64,000 nucleotides of DNA from Ignavibacteria bacterium RIFCSPLOWO2_12_FULL_56_21 (GTDB lineage: Bacteria; Bacteroidota; Ignavibacteria; UBA10030), in assembly GCA_001802945.1 (NCBI GenBank), contig MHAK01000018.1, positions 10,941 through 74,940 on the forward strand, given 5' to 3'. The notes beneath the pieces are model-generated. The model worked only from the letters and a program-made list of their open reading frames with translations. It did no database searches and was not told the DNA's origin. Position numbers and translations under genes: made by a program. Of the stretch, positions 11,241 through 28,882 are shown in pieces; the first letter of the stretch is position 1; each line of letters starts with the position of its first letter.

Positions 11241-12154
11241 AACTCTCCGGAAGACACCTCCTTGGTCTCGAGAACATGTCCCGGGACGAACTGGACTTGA
11301 TCCTCGAAACTGCGGTCTCCTTCAAAGAGGTCCTCGAACGTCCCATCAAAAAGGTTCCGCCGCTGCAGGGGAAAACGATCGCAAACCTCTTCTTTGAAAG
11401 TTCTACGCGAACAAGGATATCGTTCGAACTGGCAGAGCGTCGGCTTTCCGCGGATGTCATTTCATTCAGTCAGTCAGGGAGCAGCGTGTCGAAAGGAGAA
11501 ACCCTGAAAGACACGGCGCGGAACATCGAAGCAATGAAGATCGACATGGTCGTTGTGCGGCACGCGTCGGCGGGGGCCGCACATTTCTTGAGCCGCGTTG
11601 TTGATGCGAACATCATCAACGCTGGGGACGGCGCACATGAACATCCGACTCAGGGCCTTCTCGATATGTTCACGTTGCGCGAAAAGCACGGGTCGCTTGA
11701 AAATCTTCGCGTGTGTGTCGTCGGAGATATTCTTCACAGCCGTGTCGCACGTTCGAATATATACGGCCTGCAGACGATGGGAGCCAAGGTATCCGTCTGC
11801 GGTCCTGCAACACTCATTCCCCGCGAGATTGAACGGATGGGCGTAGCAGTGTACCATCGCCTGGAAGACGTCATTCCGGAAGTGGATGCCCTGAACGTTC
11901 TTCGGGTTCAACTGGAACGACAAAAGAGGGGACTCTTTCCGTCGCTCAGAGAATATCATCGGTACTTCGGCGTTACGAAGGAGAAAGTGCAGAAGGCTTC
12001 GCGGCCGCTGACCATCATGCATCCCGGACCGATTAATCGCGACGTTGAGCTCTCGGCCGACCTGGCAGACAGTGAACATTCTGTCATCCTTCAACAGGTG
12101 ACAAACGGAGTTGCGGTGCGGATGGCAGTCTTGTATCTGTTGGGCACAGTGTAA
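11237..12154 (+). CDS. pyrB: Aspartate carbamoyltransferase catalytic subunit
   Basis: STRTR motif (FFESSTRTRISFE) and HPTQ/HPxQ carbamoyl-P binding; overlaps the pyrR stop (ATGA). Confidence 0.9.
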   Translation: MKLSGRHLLGLENMSRDELDLILETAVSFKEVLERPIKKVPPLQGKTIANLFFESSTRTRISFELAERRLSADVISFSQSGSSVSKGETLKDTARNIEAMKIDMVVVRHASAGAAHFLSRVVDANIINAGDGAHEHPTQGLLDMFTLREKHGSLENLRVCVVGDILHSRVARSNIYGLQTMGAKVSVCGPATLIPREIERMGVAVYHRLEDVIPEVDALNVLRVQLERQKRGLFPSLREYHRYFGVTKEKVQKASRPLTIMHPGPINRDVELSADLADSEHSVILQQVTNGVAVRMAVLYLLGTV

Positions 12155-12193
12155 CGAACGTCGTTAACTAATTTCATGAACAAAGGAACTTCC

Positions 12194-13483
12194 ATGAAGA
12201 TTCATATCAAGGGCGGCCGAATTGTCGACCCGGTCAGCGGCATGGACGAGGAGCGGGATATACTGGTGGTGAACGGGATCATCGAGCGGATCTCGTCGAG
12301 GCCGAGCGTCGACGGGAGCTACCAGACGGTTGATATGAAGGGTAATATTATCGTTCCCGGATTGCTCGATATGCACGTGCACCTTCGGGAACCGGGTTAC
12401 GAACACAAAGAGACCATTGAGACGGGTTGCGAATCAGCACGGGAGGGGGGATTCACGGCGGTTTGTTGTATGCCCAACACGAATCCCGCTATCGACGACG
12501 AATCCGTTGCGCGGTACGTTCGTCAGAAAGGACAGCAGGTGTGCGACGGCATTGTCGAGGTCTATCCGATTGCAGCAGCGACCAAGGGCCGATTGGGGGA
12601 GGAATTGTCGCCGATGGCAGAATTGGCAGGCGCGGGGGCTGTCGGATACTCCGACGACGGATCGCCGATCGCGAGCGCGGAGATCATGCGCAGGGTTCTT
12701 GAGTATTCATCGATGTTTGGCATACCCGTCATTCAGCACGCAGAAGAGCCGACCATGACCATGGGCGGTTGCATCAATGAAGGGTTCGTGTCGACAAAGA
12801 GCGGACTGCCGGGTATTCCGCCCGTCGCCGAAGAATTGATGGTGGCACGCGACCTCATTCTCCTGCGATACATACCGGCGGCGAAATATCATGTTGCCCA
12901 TATCAGCACGGCCTCAGCGATCGAGCTCGTGCGCAGGGCGAAAGCGGACGGTCTCCAGGCGACGGCTGAGGCGACGCCGCATCATTTTACTCTGACGGAC
13001 GATGTCACCGCTTCATTTGACACGAACACGAAGATGAACCCGCCACTCCGGACGGCCGACGACGTCGAAGCGGTCCGTCAGGCCCTAAAAGACGGCACTA
13101 TCGACGCAATTGCAACAGACCATGCTCCCCATACGATCGATGAAAAAGAAGTTGAATATATTGAGGCGCCGTTCGGCATTGTTGGATTGGAAACCGCGAT
13201 CGGTCTGACCATGACGGAGCTCGTTGAAACTGGCCTGCTTGCGCTTGACGAAGCGATCGCCAAGCTCTCCACGAATCCCCGGCGAATTGTCGGATTGCCG
13301 GCGATCAAGTTCACTCAGGGTGAACCAGCGAACATGACATTCATCGACCCTCGCGCAAAGTGGACGGTGGATGTGCAACGTTTCAAATCGAAATCCAAGA
13401 ATTCACCGTTTCACGGGCGAGTGCTCACGGGGAAGGCAATCGGCGTTCTGAATAACGGGAAAATGTACATTGCCGGAGTATGA
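12194..13483 (+). CDS. pyrC: Dihydroorotase (PyrC-type amidohydrolase)
   Basis: GLLDMHVHLREPG metal-binding motif and cyclic amidohydrolase family; positioned in the pyr operon after pyrB. Confidence 0.85.
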   Translation: MKIHIKGGRIVDPVSGMDEERDILVVNGIIERISSRPSVDGSYQTVDMKGNIIVPGLLDMHVHLREPGYEHKETIETGCESAREGGFTAVCCMPNTNPAIDDESVARYVRQKGQQVCDGIVEVYPIAAATKGRLGEELSPMAELAGAGAVGYSDDGSPIASAEIMRRVLEYSSMFGIPVIQHAEEPTMTMGGCINEGFVSTKSGLPGIPPVAEELMVARDLILLRYIPAAKYHVAHISTASAIELVRRAKADGLQATAEATPHHFTLTDDVTASFDTNTKMNPPLRTADDVEAVRQALKDGTIDAIATDHAPHTIDEKEVEYIEAPFGIVGLETAIGLTMTELVETGLLALDEAIAKLSTNPRRIVGLPAIKFTQGEPANMTFIDPRAKWTVDVQRFKSKSKNSPFHGRVLTGKAIGVLNNGKMYIAGV

Positions 13484-22328: not shown

Positions 22329-22334
22329 CGTTAG

Positions 22335-22456
22335 AAATTGTCGGATCCCGCCAAAAAACGGCGGGGATCCTGAGAATTTCAAACACGTAGCTTCGGTCGC
22401 TTCCTGCGACCTCGCTAAGTGTAGAAATTTTCGGACAGGTAGCTCAGTTCCAATTC
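22335..22456 (+). repeat. Direct repeat unit 1 (about 120 bp, two hairpins) ending in a 17-nt copy of the tRNA-Phe 5' end
   Basis: Hairpin ggatcccgcc-aaaaaacg-gcggggatcc, hairpin ggtcgc-ttcc-tgcgacc, then gaaattttcGGACAGGTAGCTCAGTT, which matches tRNA-Phe positions 1-17. Confidence 0.6.
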
Positions 22457-22562
22457 GACTGAACTTGCCGAACGGAGTGAAGGTAAGTTCAAGGTCGAAT
22501 TGAGAATCCCGCCGAAAGGCGGGATTGGTAGGACAGAGTTACACGATAAACAGATACATTTG

Positions 22563-22679
22563 GAGATTTTCGGATCCCGCCAAAAAACGGGCGGGATCCT
22601 GAAAATTTCACAAACTTAACTTCGGTGGGTTCCACCCACCTCGTTAAGTTTGGAAATTTTCGGACAGGTAGCTCAGTTG
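22563..22679 (+). repeat. Direct repeat unit 2 (about 117 bp), leading into the intact tRNA-Phe
   Basis: About 80% identical to unit 1. Hairpin ggatcccgcc-aaaaaacg-ggcgggatcc and hairpin aacttaac..ggtggg-ttcc-acccacc..gttaagtt. The inner stem differs from unit 1 by compensatory changes. Confidence 0.6.
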
Positions 22680-22733
22680 GTAGAGCAATGGACTGAAAAT
22701 CCATGTGTCGGCGGTTCGATTCCGTCCCTGTCC
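22661..22733 (+). tRNA. tRNA-Phe (anticodon GAA)
   Basis: 73-nt cloverleaf. Acceptor GGACAGG/CCTGTCC, D-arm GCTC-AGTTGGTA-GAGC, anticodon stem ATGGA/TCCAT with loop CTGAAAA (anticodon GAA), T-arm GGCGG-TTCGATT-CCGTC. Confidence 0.85.
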
Positions 22734-23139
22734 ACGAAAGTCACATCACTCATGGAGCTGAGCGACTGTAACTGATCGGTGACTTTCAGTGTCCCGACAT
22801 GCTTCTAGTCGGGACCCATTCATCGTGCAAATGTCCGCCGCGACTTTCAATCTGTATTCCGCCCACTGCCTACTCTCAATCACGTTTTCATCTTTTCAAG
22901 ATACTCGGCCTCGCCTGCCAATTTTCGCATTCCAATTTCTTCCTTCGCCGCCCTGCCCAATAGCTGCAACAATCGTCCGGCGGGATTTCCGCATCTTCTT
23001 TTCTTTTCGCGTCTGATGGCTACACCTTTCCTTGATCCTTGCAAAACACATCCTCGAGTATCAATCCTCACATGCCGCATTGCGGTGACGTATGCCTCGC
23101 CGGGATATTGCGAAAACATGGAGTGCCATCGTGGGAAGG

Positions 23140-24609
23140 TCAGATCCGCGCCAGGTCGCGCATCAGGGCCTCGTGAACTGGGCCTTCGGCTGCGAGATAG
23201 GACGCGAAACAGGAGGCGATCTCGTCGGCGTGACGCGCCGCCTTGGGGTCGCTACGAGAGGTGGTCCATGCGGAGAGATTCAGGAGTTGGCATGGTTCCA
23301 ACAGTTGAAGAAGATCCATCAGGTCGAGAGAGGCGGAATACTTCAAAAGCGCCGTGCGCGTATTCCTGAGGCGCGCAGCTATGCACGCGGATTGAGTCAT
23401 CTTGGAAATGAGCGACTGTGAAGAGACTGGAAAAGCATTGGAAGCAAGCACTTGGCCTTGTGCGGTCACATGCAATTCGTCCCCGTCGAAGAACGATGCT
23501 GCGTCATTACCCATTGGCGTTCCCGGGAACAACATCAGTCGGAACACATTGATCGCCCGAAATCCCAGGTCAAGCACGTCTTTCAGTGTGCGTTCAAATC
23601 CTTCTGGTGAATCTCCAGGGAGTCCCACGATCACGTCCGCAGGAATGTCGGGAAATTCGCGGAGAAGAAGTCCGATGGCGGCGCGGTGCCGGTGCGTAGC
23701 CTGGCGGCCGATTCGCCGAAGGCATGCGGGATTCGTGGATTCAATGCCGATCGAAATCATCTCTATTCCGGCATCTCTGGCGAGGGTGACATATTCTCGG
23801 TCCACATGTGTGAGGTCAGGGTATGCCTTGATGCTCGTCTGCCGATTGACCCGTCCAAGGAGCGCGAAGATCTTTTTTGCCCGGTCACGTGTCCCCCCAA
23901 AATGCGCATCACAGATCCGGAGATGGCGCACGCCGTGCCGGCACAAAAAGGGAAGCTCCTGCTCTATCAGCGTGTCATCCAGAATCGTCATATTGCCGTC
24001 GGGATATTGACAATACGCGCATCGCGACCGACAACCTGCGACAGTCTCATAGGACACTTCTGAAACGGAACTGATGCATTGCATTACGTCGGTGTTCGCT
24101 TCGTGGAAGATTACTCCTCGCCCCGGTTCTGGGTCGGGGCGTACAGGCATATGGACGATCCGGTTGTCGGTCCTGAAACTGATGCAGTCGACGGCGTCGA
24201 ATGGTTTGTGGGATGCAATAGCTTCGAGTACGCGAACCAGGGGTCGTTCTCCCGCGCCACGGATGACAACATCAACGGCGTTGTGGTGCATCAAGATCTC
24301 TTCTGCGGCCGCCGTTGAATTTACCTGTGGACCGCCGAGCAGAACTCGTGCTTTTGGCAAGAGAAGTTTTACTGTGGAGGCCGCATCGAGGAATGCAGGA
24401 AGGGACCAGTAGTGGCAGGAAAAACCGACTGCATCCGGCGTCCAAGTGCCAATTGCCTGCACCAGAAGGTCGTTGGCGGGGATTCCTGCCGTCGGAATGT
24501 CAAGGGCACGTACACTGATCGGAAAAGCACACCGGCTGTGCAGAGCCTCCTTGAGGTACCACTCTGCCAGCGAGAATCCTTGCCATGAGTGCACAAACAA
24601 GAATTTCAT
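23140..24609 (-). CDS. B12-binding (class B) radical SAM protein
   Basis: 489 aa. N-terminal cobalamin-binding-like domain, then CRSRCAYC (CxxxCxxC) radical-SAM motif. Last gene of the six-gene minus-strand operon. Confidence 0.75.
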   Translation of the reverse strand: MKFLFVHSWQGFSLAEWYLKEALHSRCAFPISVRALDIPTAGIPANDLLVQAIGTWTPDAVGFSCHYWSLPAFLDAASTVKLLLPKARVLLGGPQVNSTAAAEEILMHHNAVDVVIRGAGERPLVRVLEAIASHKPFDAVDCISFRTDNRIVHMPVRPDPEPGRGVIFHEANTDVMQCISSVSEVSYETVAGCRSRCAYCQYPDGNMTILDDTLIEQELPFLCRHGVRHLRICDAHFGGTRDRAKKIFALLGRVNRQTSIKAYPDLTHVDREYVTLARDAGIEMISIGIESTNPACLRRIGRQATHRHRAAIGLLLREFPDIPADVIVGLPGDSPEGFERTLKDVLDLGFRAINVFRLMLFPGTPMGNDAASFFDGDELHVTAQGQVLASNAFPVSSQSLISKMTQSACIAARLRNTRTALLKYSASLDLMDLLQLLEPCQLLNLSAWTTSRSDPKAARHADEIASCFASYLAAEGPVHEALMRDLARI

Positions 24610-24636
24610 TTCAGTGATATTGCTTGGGCAGGATTT

Positions 24637-24987
24637 CTACCAGCTGACAATGTAGTAGTTGTAGTAGTAGTTGTAGTAGTTGTTGTATGCGTGATAATAG
24701 TTGCTGTAGCTGCTGTAACTGCCATAGCTGCCGTAGCTGGAATAATTTCCATAGCTTGTATAACTGCTGTAGTTACTATAGCTCGTGTAGCTGCTATAGC
24801 TGGCGTAGCTGTTGTACTTTTCCGGTTCGAACGGATTATCACATCCGGGAATCAGTTGGGCCCCGAGCGAACCGGCGAGCGCGGCAAATGCAATCCTCCG
24901 AAGTGCCTCCCGGCGTTTCATCGAGGGGGCAGAAGGTGCAGCGGGCAATTCGGTCCCGTCGTCAGGTTCGGTATGTTCAGTGGTCAT
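24637..24987 (-). CDS. Ser/Asn/Tyr-rich (X-X-Y)n repeat peptide with Tat/lipobox-like leader; candidate RiPP precursor
   Basis: 116 aa. Strong SD AAGGAG 6 nt upstream of the ATG; start overlaps the upstream GT stop (ATGA). Leader MKRREALRRIAFAALAGSLGAQLIPGC. Core NSYASYSSYTSYSNYSSYTSYGNYSSYGSYGSYSSYSNYYHAYNNYYNYYYNYYIVSW has perfect 3-residue periodicity. Confidence 0.55.
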   Translation of the reverse strand: MTTEHTEPDDGTELPAAPSAPSMKRREALRRIAFAALAGSLGAQLIPGCDNPFEPEKYNSYASYSSYTSYSNYSSYTSYGNYSSYGSYGSYSSYSNYYHAYNNYYNYYYNYYIVSW

Positions 24988-25856
24988 GATCCGCTCCTTT
25001 GCAAGAGGTTTTCTATGGCGCTAGTGAGTTGAGCCGGGAGAATGGTGTTCAAGCAATGACGCGCTTCCATTGGACAAGGCAGGAAGTAGTGGTCGGGATG
25101 CTTGGGGCCGAGGCAATGCTCCCGTTCCTGGCAATATTCTCGTGAACCCTTGAGGTGAATTTGCTCTGGATATCCATACACGTGTGGGTCCGTCGGGCCC
25201 CACACAACGACGGCCGGCACTCCCACGAGATGTGCAACGTGCACAAAGAAATTGTCCACCGTCACAATGGCACTGCATCGACAGGCAAGCCCGATGGCTT
25301 GGGCCGGTGAAGTGACACCAAGCAGGGAATACGCTCCCTTGATATGGGTATCTTGGTGTTGGCCGAGTTGCAGTACAAAGAGCCCCTCTTTTCGCAGCAA
25401 CTGTACCAGATCAATCCAGACGTGCAACGGCATCATTTTCCTTGGTGCATCGGATGAAGGAGCGATCAGCACAACGCAACTCCGATTCCAGGGAATCATG
25501 TTTTCCAATGATCCGGCAGCGGCAAATCCGCCGGGGAAGTACAATCGTTCTTCAACCGGCGTGGGAAGTCCGAACATTCGTGCAAGAATCTGAAAGGCCC
25601 TCCGGTCCCCGGATCCCAATTCTTCCCTGCTCCAATAATCCGTCCGGACGATTGTCGCGTCGGGTGGTGGGAAACCAATTTCCTCTATTGCCGGGTGCCC
25701 CGCAAGAATGCCCTGGTACCTCGTCCGTCGTACCAAACGGAAACGGCGTGACGGCTGATGCTCGATCACCTGCTTAAGCACGCCGGAAAGCATGAGACTG
25801 TCCCCCAAGCCTCCTATGGGATTGATCCATTCACTTTGTCCGGGCATGTCAGGCAT
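24984..25856 (-). CDS. Glycosyltransferase family 9 (heptosyltransferase-like)
   Basis: 290 aa. N-terminal GGLGDSLMLSGVLKQV motif and overall GT-B RfaF/RfaC-like pattern; 8-nt overlap with the upstream rSAM gene. Confidence 0.6.
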   Translation of the reverse strand: MPDMPGQSEWINPIGGLGDSLMLSGVLKQVIEHQPSRRFRLVRRTRYQGILAGHPAIEEIGFPPPDATIVRTDYWSREELGSGDRRAFQILARMFGLPTPVEERLYFPGGFAAAGSLENMIPWNRSCVVLIAPSSDAPRKMMPLHVWIDLVQLLRKEGLFVLQLGQHQDTHIKGAYSLLGVTSPAQAIGLACRCSAIVTVDNFFVHVAHLVGVPAVVVWGPTDPHVYGYPEQIHLKGSREYCQEREHCLGPKHPDHYFLPCPMEARHCLNTILPAQLTSAIENLLQRSGS

Positions 25857-26985
25857 GGGTGTTTTCCGACAAGGAACCTACGGGTGCAGGGAAGTCCGCG
25901 TGTAGTCCAGTGACTGGTTCGATATATCGTTCGATAAGCCTTTTTGTGGCGGCGCAATTCGGGGACTTATGCATATACGTTCCGTAGTGTTGCTTCGATT
26001 CCAATGGGCAGCCGCCATGGCAGATTCCCCACAGCCGGCACTCCCGGCACTCGGTTTCAGGAAGCAGCGATTGACGCTGTAAAAATGCGTCGCGCCGGGC
26101 ATCATGAAGAATAGATTCCAAGGTGCAGTCCTGGATCCGGCCGTATGATTCCATGTTGTAATCACCCGCTTTTCCGCATTGCGACGTGTGGCCCTCCGGA
26201 CCGATGTATACCCATTCATATGTGCAGGAACCCGAGGACTCGCAGACCAATCCTACGTTGCGATCCCGGAGACTCCGGATAATTCCTTCAAACGGTTTTA
26301 CGTGAGGGAATCGGACTCGATGTTTCCACCACACGGGGAAAATAGCGCCCAGAAAGTCGGCGAATTCCTCCGGAGTAATTGCCAGCTCGTGTTCGTCCGA
26401 ACCATACACCCAAACCATGTTGAAGTTTGGCTGCGATCGTAAATTCATGTTCGTCAGGTGATAGAACAGCTCCAGCGGTATGGCAAGAGATTTCCGGTGA
26501 ACAACATAGATAACTCCCCAGTAGATATTGTTTTCTTCGAGCAATTCCACTGACCGCATGAACGCGCGGTTGTAGGCGTCGGAATCCCGGTTCTTGCCGA
26601 ATCCCCGCAATCCGGGAATCGGCTCATAACTGGAGCCAATCTGACGAATCCCGAGCTGTCGGAACACTTCGATCAATTCCTGAGTCAACAGCGTCAAGTT
26701 CGATTGTACGAGGTGTTCGATTCTGTCTTGTGTTTGGGGACAATGCTTTTTTTGGTGTTCAAGCGCAAGTCTGAAATACTCCGGTCCGAGCAAGCATACT
26801 TCGCCGCCATGCCAGGTCAGGGTCATCGTTTCCCGGGGATGGGCGCAGAGGTATTCATTGATTCGCTGGAAGACTAGCTCGAGCAGAGAAGACGAAAGAA
26901 TCGTGTTTTGACGCTTCTTGATCACGTCGCAATAAATACAGTTGGAATTGCACCGCTCGACGGCCTTGAATATAATTACCGGCAT
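25849..26985 (-). CDS. Radical SAM / SPASM-domain protein (anSME-like peptide-modifying enzyme)
   Basis: 378 aa. CNSNCIYC (CxxxCxxC) at residues 12-19; C-terminal Cys cluster CGKAG...CRECRLWGICHGGC typical of SPASM auxiliary Fe-S domains. Confidence 0.8.
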   Translation of the reverse strand: MPVIIFKAVERCNSNCIYCDVIKKRQNTILSSSLLELVFQRINEYLCAHPRETMTLTWHGGEVCLLGPEYFRLALEHQKKHCPQTQDRIEHLVQSNLTLLTQELIEVFRQLGIRQIGSSYEPIPGLRGFGKNRDSDAYNRAFMRSVELLEENNIYWGVIYVVHRKSLAIPLELFYHLTNMNLRSQPNFNMVWVYGSDEHELAITPEEFADFLGAIFPVWWKHRVRFPHVKPFEGIIRSLRDRNVGLVCESSGSCTYEWVYIGPEGHTSQCGKAGDYNMESYGRIQDCTLESILHDARRDAFLQRQSLLPETECRECRLWGICHGGCPLESKQHYGTYMHKSPNCAATKRLIERYIEPVTGLHADFPAPVGSLSENTHA

Positions 26986-27836
26986 TCGTCCATCCTCCCG
27001 TCGTCGCGTTTACGGCGATAGAAGTCGGCCGCGTCCAAGAGGTCCGAAAAGAATTCCGAACATCCGGTCGTTGGGGGGACTGCATCTGCGTACTTGCCCA
27101 GACAAACTCTCCATCCCGGGCAGGACGCACACGAGCTCATCTCGAGAAATCTCTTCCGCCATGCGTACTGTGATTTCCGGAATGCAGGCGACGCCGTGAT
27201 CGTTTCCAGCGCCCCGAGACCCTTCGCTAGAATTCGACCGCTTTGCAGATCCTCTTGGGTCAACGCGATCTCTTCCCGGTTGTTCACATGGAGGTATTGA
27301 CCCGGTGCATTGAAATACGCAGCATCGAAATCGGTCATCTTCTCGGGATGGTAATGAGTCACGACGTAGTTAAACGGCTCGATGGGAGCGTGCGGGGCCT
27401 TGCAGTAGACAGCATAATGCATCAGGTCGTTCAGTTCCTGCCAGCGGTCAAACGAAGCATCAACGATCAGTCCGCAGGAAATTCCCAGTGAAGAGAGAAT
27501 GTGCAGGTCGACGAAGGCGCTTGGGAGGTGAGCCGGAATGAATATGCGCAGGGGAAGACGCCGGAGCAACGGCATGCGAGGCGAGAGGCCCTTTACCGAT
27601 GCGATCCCGGCGCAGCGGATGACAAGTGTCACACCTGCCCAGCGACTTTCGATTGGAATATCGTCCAGCGGTTGGTCAGAATCCAACCACACAGCGTGCA
27701 ATGCGTTGGTGCCGTTGGTCCGGACAGCCAAAGAAGCTATCGCTGCCGGATCACGAGTACGAATCACGAGTGCCTGGCCACGCATTCGGGTAAGGAGCAC
27801 CGGTTCGTCGGGACACACAATGATTGGCTCGTTCAC
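26976..27836 (-). CDS. Hypothetical protein with C-terminal SPASM-like Cys cluster but no CxxxCxxC motif
   Basis: 286 aa. SSCASCPGWRVCLGKY...TGCSEFF cysteine cluster near the C-terminus; no radical-SAM core motif. Translationally coupled between two rSAM genes. Confidence 0.5.
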   Translation of the reverse strand: MNEPIIVCPDEPVLLTRMRGQALVIRTRDPAAIASLAVRTNGTNALHAVWLDSDQPLDDIPIESRWAGVTLVIRCAGIASVKGLSPRMPLLRRLPLRIFIPAHLPSAFVDLHILSSLGISCGLIVDASFDRWQELNDLMHYAVYCKAPHAPIEPFNYVVTHYHPEKMTDFDAAYFNAPGQYLHVNNREEIALTQEDLQSGRILAKGLGALETITASPAFRKSQYAWRKRFLEMSSCASCPGWRVCLGKYADAVPPTTGCSEFFSDLLDAADFYRRKRDDGRMDECR

Positions 27837-28834
27837 CCGTATACCTCTGTAATACGGACGGGGGCTTCGGTATGAAACCGGTCAACAAGATGAGCAATGC
27901 ATCCGCCTTCGCAAAGTCCGCTTTCCCGATGCCGACACGTATCGCATTCCAAGCGCACCCCCCCGGATTCCTGCCGGACCAGTTTGTGCAATCTCTCATA
28001 GAATTGCCGGATATCCTGGAGCGAATTGAAATCATACAGAGACCTTCTCCGAAAACCGGAGAGAGGAAAACATGACCATACCGTCATATCGGGGCCGATG
28101 TCAATGGCCGGTCCGCAATTGAAATGCAAGTTGCCCTGACTGATCCGATACAGTATGCCCAGCTGCTCGTCGGAAAACAGGCACAAGGGCATTCCACAAT
28201 CAAACCCTATCGTAATATGAAACTGATCCAGGTTTGGGACAAACTGCATCAACCGCTGGGCCATGTGTTTGAGTTCATGGGAAGCCAGACAGCGATTGTG
28301 TTCGCCCGGAATCGGATGTGCAAGTCCGATCCGCAGGTGGCGTCGCGTGCCATACCGGTTGATGTAATCGAAGAGCACAGCGAGGTCGAAATCAGGGCGA
28401 TAGATATTGTATCCGAGCGAAGAGTGATGGCCGAACAATTCGAGGAATCGTTCTAACCGTTCGGTCTCTTTGTCGGAGGAGATGTCAGGCTGATTGACAT
28501 TGACAACAAAGGACAACTGATCCGGTGCAACATCCCGCAGATGTTTCCATGCATCGTCGAGGACAGGGGTCGACATGATGCCGCTCGTGAAGACCGAAAC
28601 ATGGAATTGACGGGCGATCAGGTATGCGACAAAATCGACGAAGTGTGGATTAAGGGTGGGTTCACCGCCGAGGAGCGAAATGTGTCGCTCATGCGATGAT
28701 TCAAGGAAGTCGATAACGTACAGGAAGTTTTCCCACGTCAGGCTTCCGTCCGGGGAAGGGTCGTTCATCTGCTCTCGCGCAAAACAGTATGGACAGGATC
28801 GAACGCATTTCCGTGTGAGGAGGAGGTTCGCCAT
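27833..28834 (-). CDS. Radical SAM / SPASM-domain protein
   Basis: CVRSCPYC (CxxxCxxC) near the N-terminus and C-terminal CDTCRHRESGLCEGGC SPASM motif. Start set at MANLLL (ATG 28834) because a consensus promoter lies inside the longer ORF-track extension. Confidence 0.78.
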   Translation of the reverse strand: MANLLLTRKCVRSCPYCFAREQMNDPSPDGSLTWENFLYVIDFLESSHERHISLLGGEPTLNPHFVDFVAYLIARQFHVSVFTSGIMSTPVLDDAWKHLRDVAPDQLSFVVNVNQPDISSDKETERLERFLELFGHHSSLGYNIYRPDFDLAVLFDYINRYGTRRHLRIGLAHPIPGEHNRCLASHELKHMAQRLMQFVPNLDQFHITIGFDCGMPLCLFSDEQLGILYRISQGNLHFNCGPAIDIGPDMTVWSCFPLSGFRRRSLYDFNSLQDIRQFYERLHKLVRQESGGVRLECDTCRHRESGLCEGGCIAHLVDRFHTEAPVRITEVYG

Positions 28835-28853
28835 AACGTGAGCAGCTTGACCG

Positions 28854-28882
28854 AATATATCTTTCCCACCTCTGAGTGTCAA
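28854..28882 (-). promoter_or_regulatory. Sigma-70-type promoter (TTGACA-17-TATATT) for the rSAM/peptide operon
   Basis: On the minus strand, TTGACA (plus coordinates 28877-28882), a 17-nt spacer, and TATATT (28854-28859), about 20 nt upstream of the MANLLL start codon. Confidence 0.55.

Follow-up and report, generated by a model that had tools for sequence, protein, structure and literature searches.

A conserved radical SAM cassette that probably matures an exported tyrosine-repeat protein in uncultured bacteria

Introduction

What is made by radical S-adenosylmethionine (rSAM) enzymes whose genes lie beside a reading frame for a peptide that ends in a long array of tyrosine triplets? The question is raised by a locus of Ignavibacteria bacterium RIFCSPLOWO2_12_FULL_56_21, found in a stretch of 64,000 nucleotides (contig MHAK01000018.1 of assembly GCA_001802945.1, positions 10,941 to 74,940 of the forward strand) that is referred to as the window throughout this text. 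An earlier note, made from the letters of the window, had described the locus as a candidate system for a peptide that is made by ribosomes and modified after translation (a RiPP), of no described class. Comparison with homologous loci shows the locus to be one copy of a cassette that is real, conserved, horizontally spread and apparently undescribed, and we consider it fairly probable that this cassette, by the mechanism set out below, matures an exported tyrosine-repeat protein.

Results

The locus and its precursor gene

Six genes run in the same direction on the minus strand of the window (23140–28834), and the open reading frame (ORF) listing upholds their existence as earlier described. 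The three core genes encode a 333-aa rSAM enzyme with a full SPASM-type C-terminal cysteine set (rSAM1; 27833–28834; Pfam Radical_SAM, 55.5 bits), a 286-aa cysteine-containing protein (26976–27836), the start of which overlaps the rSAM1 stop by 4 nt, and a 378-aa rSAM/SPASM enzyme (25849–26985; SPASM model TIGR04085, 38 bits against a cutoff of 27). These are followed by a short, 290-aa GT9 glycosyltransferase (24984–25856; Pfam Glyco_transf_9, PF01075, 34.5 versus 22 bits), a 116-aa tyrosine-repeat precursor (24637–24987) with AGGAG 8 nt upstream of its ATG, and a 489-aa B12-binding rSAM enzyme (B12-rSAM; 23140–24609; PF02310, 40.5 versus 32.1 bits; PF04055, 62.4 versus 29.5 bits). Successive genes overlap by 4, 10, 8 and 4 nt, and a 27-nt gap precedes the B12-rSAM gene. 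The Radical_SAM domain is found in three of the six proteins with Pfam and NCBIfam, and the domain assignments previously made by eye (rSAM, SPASM, GT9, B12-binding, and a "SPASM-like" 286-aa protein) all proved correct, the last of them at the level of fold. In the annotation of the source genome the enzymes are hypothetical proteins, and the exact sequence of the 116-aa peptide is absent from a collection of 15 billion proteins, which indicates that it has never been called as a gene.

The Tyr-rich core of the precursor (residues 58–116; 24640–24816, minus strand) comprises 13 consecutive Y-x-(S/N) triplets, in residues 58–96, and a YYN-type tail ending in IVSW; its last 59 residues hold 16 overlapping Y-x-[S/N/D/T] motifs. 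The sequence of the (X-X-Tyr)13 peptide had been quoted exactly.

Conservation and distribution of the cassette

Three metagenomic contigs were reached through homologues of the 286-aa protein, and 28 further loci through a profile scan of one genome per species; L001 and L007 are the same contig. Thirty loci besides the window were compared, and gene distribution was determined by tblastn. The order rSAM1, 286-aa protein, rSAM/SPASM enzyme is kept in every one of them. The hosts are metagenome-assembled genomes (MAGs) of Bacteroidales and other Bacteroidota, Nitrospirota, Spirochaetota, Phycisphaerae, Acidobacteriota, Thermodesulfobacteriota, Syntrophaceae and Kiritimatiellae, together with one Thorarchaeota bin, a span of at least nine phyla of uncultured bacteria plus one MAG labelled archaeal. 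The protein families are larger than this set of loci: the 286-aa protein has 393 representatives when clustered at 50% identity, the rSAM/SPASM enzyme has 478 homologues with E<=1e-10, and the GT9 enzyme has 292 matches with E<=1e-5. No member of the three families bears an informative name.

A six-frame search places a Tyr-rich ORF with a conserved N-terminal motif next to the core in 27 of the 30 other loci, either upstream of rSAM1 or downstream of GT9. In two of the three loci without it (L004 and L009) the contig breaks off, whereas the third (L024) has the core. The precursor ORF is uncalled in L001 and called in the wrong frame in L002. Recurrence of the same frame and the same N-terminal motif in so many phyla bears out the proposal that the peptide is a genuine partner of the enzymes; the small ORF would have been a chance frame if homologous loci lacked it, and its conservation shows that it is not one.

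These data also bear on the simplest alternative, according to which no dedicated system exists and ordinary sulfatase-maturing (anSME) or housekeeping rSAM enzymes happen to stand beside a by-product of repetitive DNA. The DNA of the array is indeed tandemly repetitive and open in other frames, and anSME is a joint top match of the 378-aa enzyme (127 bits). However, this score falls short of the anSME cutoff of 349 bits, none of the loci has a linked sulfatase, gene order and overlaps are conserved, and the Tyr frame alone carries the conserved motif across phyla. In our judgement the comparative sequence data refute this alternative, to which we give next to no credence.

The remaining genes are less constant. 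GT9 is present in 22 of the 31 loci, missing from 8, and in one case fused to the rSAM/SPASM enzyme in a 694-aa ORF of L003 (4828–6912), the B12-rSAM occurs only in the window and in L002 (2/31), and a second rSAM/SPASM paralogue is found in four loci. The B12-rSAM and the glycosyltransferase, which had been counted as parts of the system, are therefore real genes that accompany it as accessories and do not define it. Clustering of the flanking genes of the 30 loci revealed no neighbour family besides the precursors in more than three loci, and thus no conserved protease, exporter or regulator. A description of the cassette was found neither in NCBIfam (June 2026) nor in the literature on pseudo-rSAM proteins, on Tyr-rich rSAM systems and on RiPPs with Tat signals or heptosyltransferases, a coverage that does not extend to the triceptide landscape survey of Sugiyama et al. 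(JACS 2022); the statement that this combination matches no described RiPP class stands within that scope.

Several individual loci deserve mention. DDE transposase genes border the L003 cassette on either side, which would agree with its being mobile. A full cassette (rSAM1, partner, rSAM/SPASM enzyme, GT9, and a YYYY-rich precursor with RREALKKIA) lies on the Candidatus Thorarchaeota-binned contig L026, and reflects either transfer into archaea or a binning error. At the contig start of L029 (2–616; Kiritimatiellae MAG), the C-terminal half of rSAM1 is preceded in frame by a Tyr/Ser-rich stretch; either the copy has been rearranged or degraded, or the join is an artefact of assembly. In L001 (Nitrospirae), genes for Cas6 and for a HEPN_Swt1/guanylate-cyclase/FHA protein lie near the cassette on opposite sides of it (1422–2180 and 11530–13359), the sole hint of a defence island among the loci examined.

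The tyrosine array and its variants

Across 27 precursor cores (L001 and L007 counted once), the composition is 38% Tyr, 23% Ser, 8% Asn, 6% Gly and 4.5% Asp. The residue at +3 from a Tyr is again Tyr in 62% of cases, and the residue at +2 is Ser, Asn, Asp or Thr in 60%. Array variants include Y-x-S, Y-Y-(S/N/D) and a period-4 form, Y-x-S-G. The aromatic repeat of period three that was first noticed fits the aromatic-X-X logic of cyclophane-forming rSAM-SPASM enzymes, but strict period three is not universal, and the conserved unit is Y-x-(S/N/D).

Some members carry additions. The Tyr/Ser-repeat precursor of L016 (8595–9353; uncultured Bacteroides MAG) has at its C-terminus an additional Peptidase_S74 intramolecular chaperone domain (59.5 bits), together with a coiled-coil-like tail. 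In fibrous tail-spike or collagen-like proteins, the S74 domain normally brings about trimerisation and is afterwards removed by self-cleavage, so that the Tyr array may form a trimeric fibre in this member. The precursors of L017, L018, L019 and L025 and the L022 peptide end in YYSQYCSGxGSxYYYSxxC, with two extra cysteines, and four loci of this subfamily hold the second rSAM/SPASM paralogue (38–42% identical); extra cysteines and paralogue together suggest an added cross-link of the thioether type. In two Spirochaetales loci (L021, 4215–8010; L027, 2892–6908), the precursor and tat genes are followed by genes for a 546–567-aa rSAM protein, a YcaO-domain protein and a TPR protein, which would represent either further tailoring (azoline or thioamide formation) or a separate neighbouring peptide system.

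The signal-type N-terminus and the export of the precursor

The family precursors are 80–240 aa long and consist of a polar N-region (3–35 residues), an RR motif, a hydrophobic stretch and a Tyr array of 40–170 residues. The RR motif, with the consensus [S/T/K/M]-R-R-[D/E]-A-L-K-R-[I/M]-A, is common to all precursors and reads K-R-R-E-A-L-R-R-I-A in the window (residues 24–33; 24889–24918, minus strand). It is followed by the h-region FAALAGSLGAQLIPG (24841–24888, minus strand), with a grand average of hydropathy of 1.53 (1.0–1.9 across precursors), and then by Cys49, a possible signal-peptidase II site. A cysteine stands 14–18 residues past the motif in 17 of 28 precursors, and 11 of the 28 fit a PROSITE-type lipobox. 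The NCBIfam model TAT_signal_seq (TIGR01409) matches four of ten members tested with 13.4–16.4 bits (cutoff 16.7), and other weak matches are to the twin-arginine translocation (Tat) leaders of formate dehydrogenase, Rieske protein and MelC1.

Gene neighbourhoods point to the same pathway. The tatC gene directly follows the precursor gene in L021, L027 and L028 (Pfam TatC, E 1e-46 to 1e-64; TIGR00945 142.6 bits against a cutoff of 132.7 for L021), and tatA adjoins the precursor gene in L012, L014, L027, L028 and L031 (52–66 bits). One or both genes thus lie beside the precursor in six of the 30 loci, in two phyla; neither is found in the window itself. As judged from its sequence, the precursor N-terminus has the layout of a twin-arginine-type signal, often of the lipoprotein type, and not that of an ordinary RiPP leader.

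Two observations adjoin this one. An internal ATG (Met23; 24919–24921 of the window) stands immediately before KRREALRRIA and would give a classic short Tat n-region; the upstream ATG is the likelier start because AGGAG precedes it and because homologues mostly have long polar N-regions, and dual starts are possible. In three Bacteroidota loci (L012, 8261–9898; also L014 and L031), the precursor and tatA are followed by a gene for a 545-aa SLT lytic transglycosylase with LysM repeats, a possible connection to peptidoglycan.

If the RR-ALKRIA segment were a leader instead, the locus would be a classical RiPP system, in which the cross-linked array is cut into small triceptide-like cyclophanes that are released as antibiotics or signals. 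The Y-x-(S/N/D) repeats do match triceptide motifs (PMC11499958), the 378-aa enzyme falls in the cyclophane/Dar/anSME clade, multi-core repeat precursors are common for rSAM RiPPs, and the RR motif is stricter than that of ordinary Tat signals. However, none of the 30 loci shows a conserved protease, peptidase-containing ATP-binding cassette transporter (PCAT) or other ABC exporter; the cores, of up to 170 residues, lack internal cleavage motifs, one member ends in the folded S74 domain, the motif is followed by a hydrophobic h-region and a positionally fixed cysteine, and tatA or tatC adjoins the precursor in 6 loci. The Tat-type signal with its cysteine, the tat neighbours and the missing protease and exporter make an exported, modified (lipo)protein likelier than a small released product, and we regard the classical scheme as unlikely. 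The RiPP-type peptide of the earlier note accordingly survives as a repeat peptide partnered with rSAM maturases, but its leader appears to be a Tat-type signal, usually followed by a cysteine, and its product is more likely an exported (lipo)protein.

The same evidence speaks against a fate as a sacrificial scaffold, in which the array would be spent to furnish a small Tyr-derived cofactor or pigment many times over, in the style of pyrroloquinoline quinone (PQQ) or mycofactocin. PqqE and MftC are SPASM enzymes that act on Tyr in small peptides, both are among the weak matches, and repeats would multiply the yield. Flanking-gene clustering nevertheless revealed no PqqB/C/F-like or MftD/E-like processing enzyme and no peptidase, and the signal peptide, the cysteine and the tat linkage favour export of the polypeptide; a scaffold role seems very improbable.

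The rSAM enzymes and a dead paralogue

An alignment of 11 homologues shows that rSAM1 has an invariant CxxxCxxC motif and, in addition, C213, C218, C240, C255, C297, C300 and C308, giving seven or eight invariant C-terminal cysteines with SPASM spacing. The enzyme resembles known families only over its first ~100 residues and misses all NCBIfam family cutoffs. The 378-aa rSAM/SPASM enzyme begins directly at CxxxCxxC, with no N-terminal extension, and has a canonical CX2CX5CX3C motif. Its NCBIfam scores are 128 bits for DarE, 127 for anSME, 117 for DarW, 112 for DynA, 81 for GrrM/OscB, 78 for YhhB and 59 for FxsB, with TIGR04083 and AmcB also among the best models, and all of these lie 3–10-fold below the respective cutoffs. 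The best relatives of solved structure in the PDB are anSME (4k37) and the Tyr-cyclophane synthase ChlB (9gm3). On this sequence evidence, the 378-aa enzyme is assigned to the anSME/DarE/cyclophane-synthase clade. The B12-rSAM has the domain layout of a class B (cobalamin) rSAM enzyme (B12-binding domain and rSAM core); its best NCBIfam models, PhpK and KedN5, are far below cutoff, its PDB match is TokK (7kdx), and it reaches no specific subfamily. No enzyme of the cassette attains a curated specific-family threshold in NCBIfam. The cassette contains no RiPP recognition element (RRE) domain, and neither rSAM1 nor the rSAM/SPASM enzyme has an N-terminal extension.

The 286-aa protein has no Pfam or NCBIfam match at E<0.01, the pseudo-rSAM models TIGR04150 and TIGR04347 included. 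Its predicted structure (predicted local distance difference test score, pLDDT, 90.4) shows a strong fold-level resemblance to rSAM/SPASM enzymes, in which CxxxCxxC is lost and four invariant C-terminal cysteines (CX2CX5C and a distal Cys) are retained. By comparison with the anSME structure, we take the retained cysteines to be ligands of auxiliary cluster II. The model thus portrays the 286-aa protein as a dead enzyme of rSAM/SPASM fold that keeps one cluster site. Descent as a recent dead copy of a neighbouring gene was considered and rejected, as hhalign returned nothing against rSAM1 and only CxxCxxWxxC against the rSAM/SPASM enzyme, which indicates an old, separate lineage.

The GT9 glycosyltransferase

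The AlphaFold2 model of the GT9 protein (pLDDT 92) is a short GT-B enzyme. Foldseek relates it to the GT9 structure 3tov, WaaF, TibC (query TM-score, TMq, 0.70–0.72) and WaaC, with GT9 structures reaching E 4e-12; the fold matches lipopolysaccharide (LPS) heptosyltransferases and the protein O-heptosyltransferase TibC equally well. Similarity to TibC is confined to structure, no sequence similarity between the two being found by phmmer or profile search. Four cysteines in a C-lobe insertion (C242, C248, C261 and C268) are invariant in the family alignment. In L002, genes for ADP-heptose 6-epimerase (297.7 against a cutoff of 274.6 bits) and an RfaE-II-like heptose-1-phosphate adenylyltransferase lie directly downstream of the cassette. 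The idea that GT9 presence tracks the Ser content of the core was dropped, as no clear pattern emerged and short D-rich cores occur with and without GT9.

Promoter and surroundings of the locus in the window

A promoter-like site, TTGACA-17-TATATT (28854–28882, minus strand), with 11 of 12 consensus matches, lies ~20 nt upstream of rSAM1; it is a pattern match only, and sites of the TTGACA/TATATT type show no excess over shuffled sequence across the region. The start of rSAM1 is placed at ATG 28834, and not at TTG 28882 where the longer version in the ORF listing begins, because that TTG belongs to the −35 hexamer and because homologues align only from residue 17 of the longer ORF. The operon of six overlapping genes behind one promoter that was originally described is thus upheld in its coordinates, with a near-consensus promoter.

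A tRNA-Phe gene (22662–22735) lies 405 bp from the B12-rSAM gene. The suggestion that it marks the insertion point of a genomic island is not supported: the G+C content of the cluster (0.51–0.57) equals that of its flanks, an integrase is absent, and the far side carries no att repeat of the tRNA 3′ end. The only repeat related to the tRNA is found upstream of it, a 119-nt direct repeat of 85% identity at 22331–22449 and 22560–22678; each copy holds a GGATCCCGCC...GGCGGGGATCC hairpin, and the last 17 nt of each are those with which the tRNA begins. Of the two, the upstream copy is hence a truncated 5′ fragment of tRNA-Phe with its leader region, and the repeat is no island boundary, since it lies on the side of the tRNA away from the operon.

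Discussion

Relation to known systems

In likely chemistry, the nearest analogues are the triceptides (XncB/XyeB, OscB/GrrM, MscB/FxsB, YxdB, YhhB, HaaB and ChlB), which share with the cassette an rSAM-SPASM maturase of the broad anSME-like clade without an RRE and a precursor of repeated aromatic-X-X units, the third residue of which (S/N/D) is among those linked through C-beta in known triceptides. In known triceptides an aromatic carbon is bonded to C-beta two residues further on (i+2); MscB links Phe-Ser in this way, YxdB Tyr-Asp and YhhB Tyr-Arg (PMC11002830, PMC11499958), and the Y-x-(S/N/D) unit fits cross-linking of this kind. None of the 3-CyFE models is satisfied by the 378-aa enzyme, however (XyeB 41.8/450, GrrM/OscB 80.9/310, FxsB 58.6/370, YhhB 78.3/445, AmcB 71.1/425; bits/cutoff), and the cassette differs in its obligatory second rSAM-SPASM enzyme and dead paralogue, its Tat-type signal, often with a cysteine, its far longer arrays and, usually, its GT9 enzyme.

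Higher scores are obtained with DarE, DarW and DynA, the best curated models for the 378-aa enzyme (112–128 bits), which introduce ether and C–C links between aromatic and aliphatic side chains; their cutoffs of 650, 650 and 450 are not approached, the ~75-residue N-terminal extension of DarE is absent, and the translated window precursor contains no W-x-W-x-K or Trp heptapeptide-type core. The anSME enzymes, a joint top match and the best relative of solved structure, also act in the cytoplasm on proteins with export signals, but their model (TIGR03942) is missed by a wide margin (127 versus 349 bits), and no sulfatase or C/S-x-P/A-x-R motif occurs in any of the 30 loci.

Partners resembling the dead paralogue have been annotated in other peptide clusters, where their function is unassigned (PMC10352776). 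These pseudo-rSAM proteins (IPR026418/TIGR04150 of the GG-Bacteroidales type, and TIGR04347) have likewise lost CxxxCxxC and stand beside an active rSAM enzyme and a precursor (PMC10352776), but they do not match the 286-aa protein in sequence, and their clusters use a GG leader and a PCAT transporter. For the glycosyltransferase, possible counterparts are the TibC/AAH autotransporter heptosyltransferases, whose GT9-type GT-B fold acts on repetitive Ser-rich proteins in the cytoplasm before export. TibC carries a Cys4 iron finger (Cys339/342/358/370; PMC4358343); the four invariant cysteines in the C-lobe insertion of the cassette enzyme recall it, with different spacing. It lacks the N-terminal beta-barrel of TibC, is 116 residues shorter (290 versus 406 aa), and its model starts with a beta-alpha unit.

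In design, by analogy, the nearest system is HXS (HxsA-D; Nat Commun 2026, PMC13128918), in which two rSAM enzymes and a non-catalytic partner mature a signal-peptide protein with aromatic or heteroaromatic-X-Ser repeats that acts in the periplasm. HxsC pairs physically with HxsD, and rSAM1 of the cassette is translationally coupled to the 286-aa protein. The partner in HXS is, however, a small LLNDYxLRE protein and not a 286-aa rSAM-fold protein, the repeats are His-based and not Tyr-based, the HxsA peptidoglycan-binding domain has no counterpart here, and the hosts are Gammaproteobacteria as opposed to MAGs of anaerobes. Scores against the Hxs models are low (HxsB 43.6 versus 370 bits, HxsC 20.9–21.8 versus 268, HxsA4 22 versus 55), and HxsD (TIGR03976) is not matched; the resemblance is one of architecture only, with no orthology. 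Bufferins, periplasmic RiPPs modified by MNIO enzymes (PMC11626156), are comparable in that a signal peptide stands in for both dedicated leader and exporter and that the product remains periplasmic, but they use a Sec signal, MNIO chemistry on cysteine and copper binding, and their enzymes are unrelated. HxsA (PMC13128918) and the bufferins (PMC11626156) both show that signal-peptide-bearing precursors can be matured by cytoplasmic enzymes.

The likeness to HXS raises the further alternative that the cassette is an anti-phage system of that kind, with a repeat effector matured by two rSAM enzymes and their partner and placed in the periplasm, where it blocks phage entry. This would account for the shared architecture (two rSAM enzymes, a non-enzymatic partner, a signal-peptide repeat effector and periplasmic action; PMC13128918), for HxsA4 being the only NCBIfam match of the window peptide, and for the patchy spread across phyla, the transposases around L003 and the Cas6 and HEPN genes near L001. 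Yet the HxsB, HxsC, HxsD and HxsA models are far under cutoff or absent, HxsA uses basic His repeats with a peptidoglycan-binding domain whereas the Tyr array is neutral to acidic and without such a domain, and defence genes are not consistently found near the loci. A search for known defence systems with PADLOC returned only generic rSAM similarities (viperin-like and PDC-M51A). We consider a defence system of this type quite unlikely.

A proposed mechanism

Maturation of an exported Tyr-repeat protein, the reading that we favour, would proceed as follows. The precursor would be modified in the cytoplasm, because rSAM enzymes and nucleotide-sugar transferases are cytoplasmic. There, the anSME/DarE-clade enzyme may cross-link the Tyr units, most likely from Tyr-C3 to the C-beta of residue i+2, as in triceptides, or alternatively through a Dar-type ether. 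A second radical modification might be carried out by rSAM1 paired with the dead paralogue, whose probable part is to hold the precursor or the signal region of it, or else to contribute an auxiliary cluster; a role as precursor holder is suggested by the lack of an RRE and of an N-terminal extension in either enzyme. GT9 would glycosylate hydroxyls of Ser or Tyr, probably with heptose donated by ADP-heptose, and the B12-rSAM would methylate the product in the lineage of the window. The finished chain, rigid and branched, would be unable to thread the general secretory (Sec) channel and would leave by the Tat pathway. Tat is a route for substrates that are finished in the cytoplasm. The general signal peptidase would then cut the signal, and in many members Cys+1 would be lipidated, leaving a modified poly-Tyr tail in the envelope. 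We can only guess at its role, perhaps an envelope-associated protective or adhesive layer, for which the anti-phage HXS effector is the nearest functional precedent.

We regard as established which genes form the set and that they are conserved, together with the signal-type N-terminus of the precursor, its linkage to tat genes, the logic of the repeat motif and the fold of the dead enzyme; it is the chemistry and the role that we infer. That every chemical step is of this inferred kind weighs against the scheme, as do several particular points. The sequence of the 378-aa enzyme does not single out a reaction type, since its scores are far below every family cutoff and its anSME score is as high as that for DarE. 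The TAT_signal_seq cutoff is reached by none of the ten members tested, and where the Tat consensus has Phe this family consistently has Ala. Ordinary Tat signals are also less conserved than this motif, which may primarily be an element for recognition by the enzymes. The tat linkage is limited to 6 of 30 loci. LIPGC of the window falls outside the PROSITE-type lipobox pattern, and the expected cysteine is missing from 11 of 28 precursors. The ADP-heptose genes adjoin the cassette in L002 only and could serve LPS. In L024, finally, no precursor is detectable near the core by six-frame search.

Within rSAM-SPASM maturation of repeat peptides, the cassette is unusual in three respects: an apparent Tat or lipoprotein signal takes the place of a leader, the dead rSAM paralogue is obligatory, and a short GT9 enzyme is dedicated to it. 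It is conceivable, though we put this forward only tentatively, that its product represents a new class of bacterial envelope component, a Tat-exported, often lipid-anchored poly-(Tyr-x-Ser/Asn/Asp) tail with rSAM-made cyclophane or ether rings and heptose, in which the dead rSAM paralogue reads the Tat signal and which serves uncultured anaerobes as an aromatic surface or periplasmic material, possibly as a barrier against phage or other assault.

Significance

Despite hundreds of homologues, the system is invisible in current annotations because its precursor genes are missed or mis-framed by gene callers. If the favoured reading is true, rSAM-SPASM peptide chemistry would extend from small secreted products to long, exported and possibly lipid-anchored proteins, with very long tandem Tyr-x-Ser stretches as substrates for cyclophane-forming enzymes, and the Tat pathway would be linked to the export of heavily cross-linked peptides. 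The pseudo-rSAM proteins, which are widely annotated without an assigned function, would gain a testable role, and the cassette would be a second, much more widespread example of the design first seen in the HXS anti-phage system.

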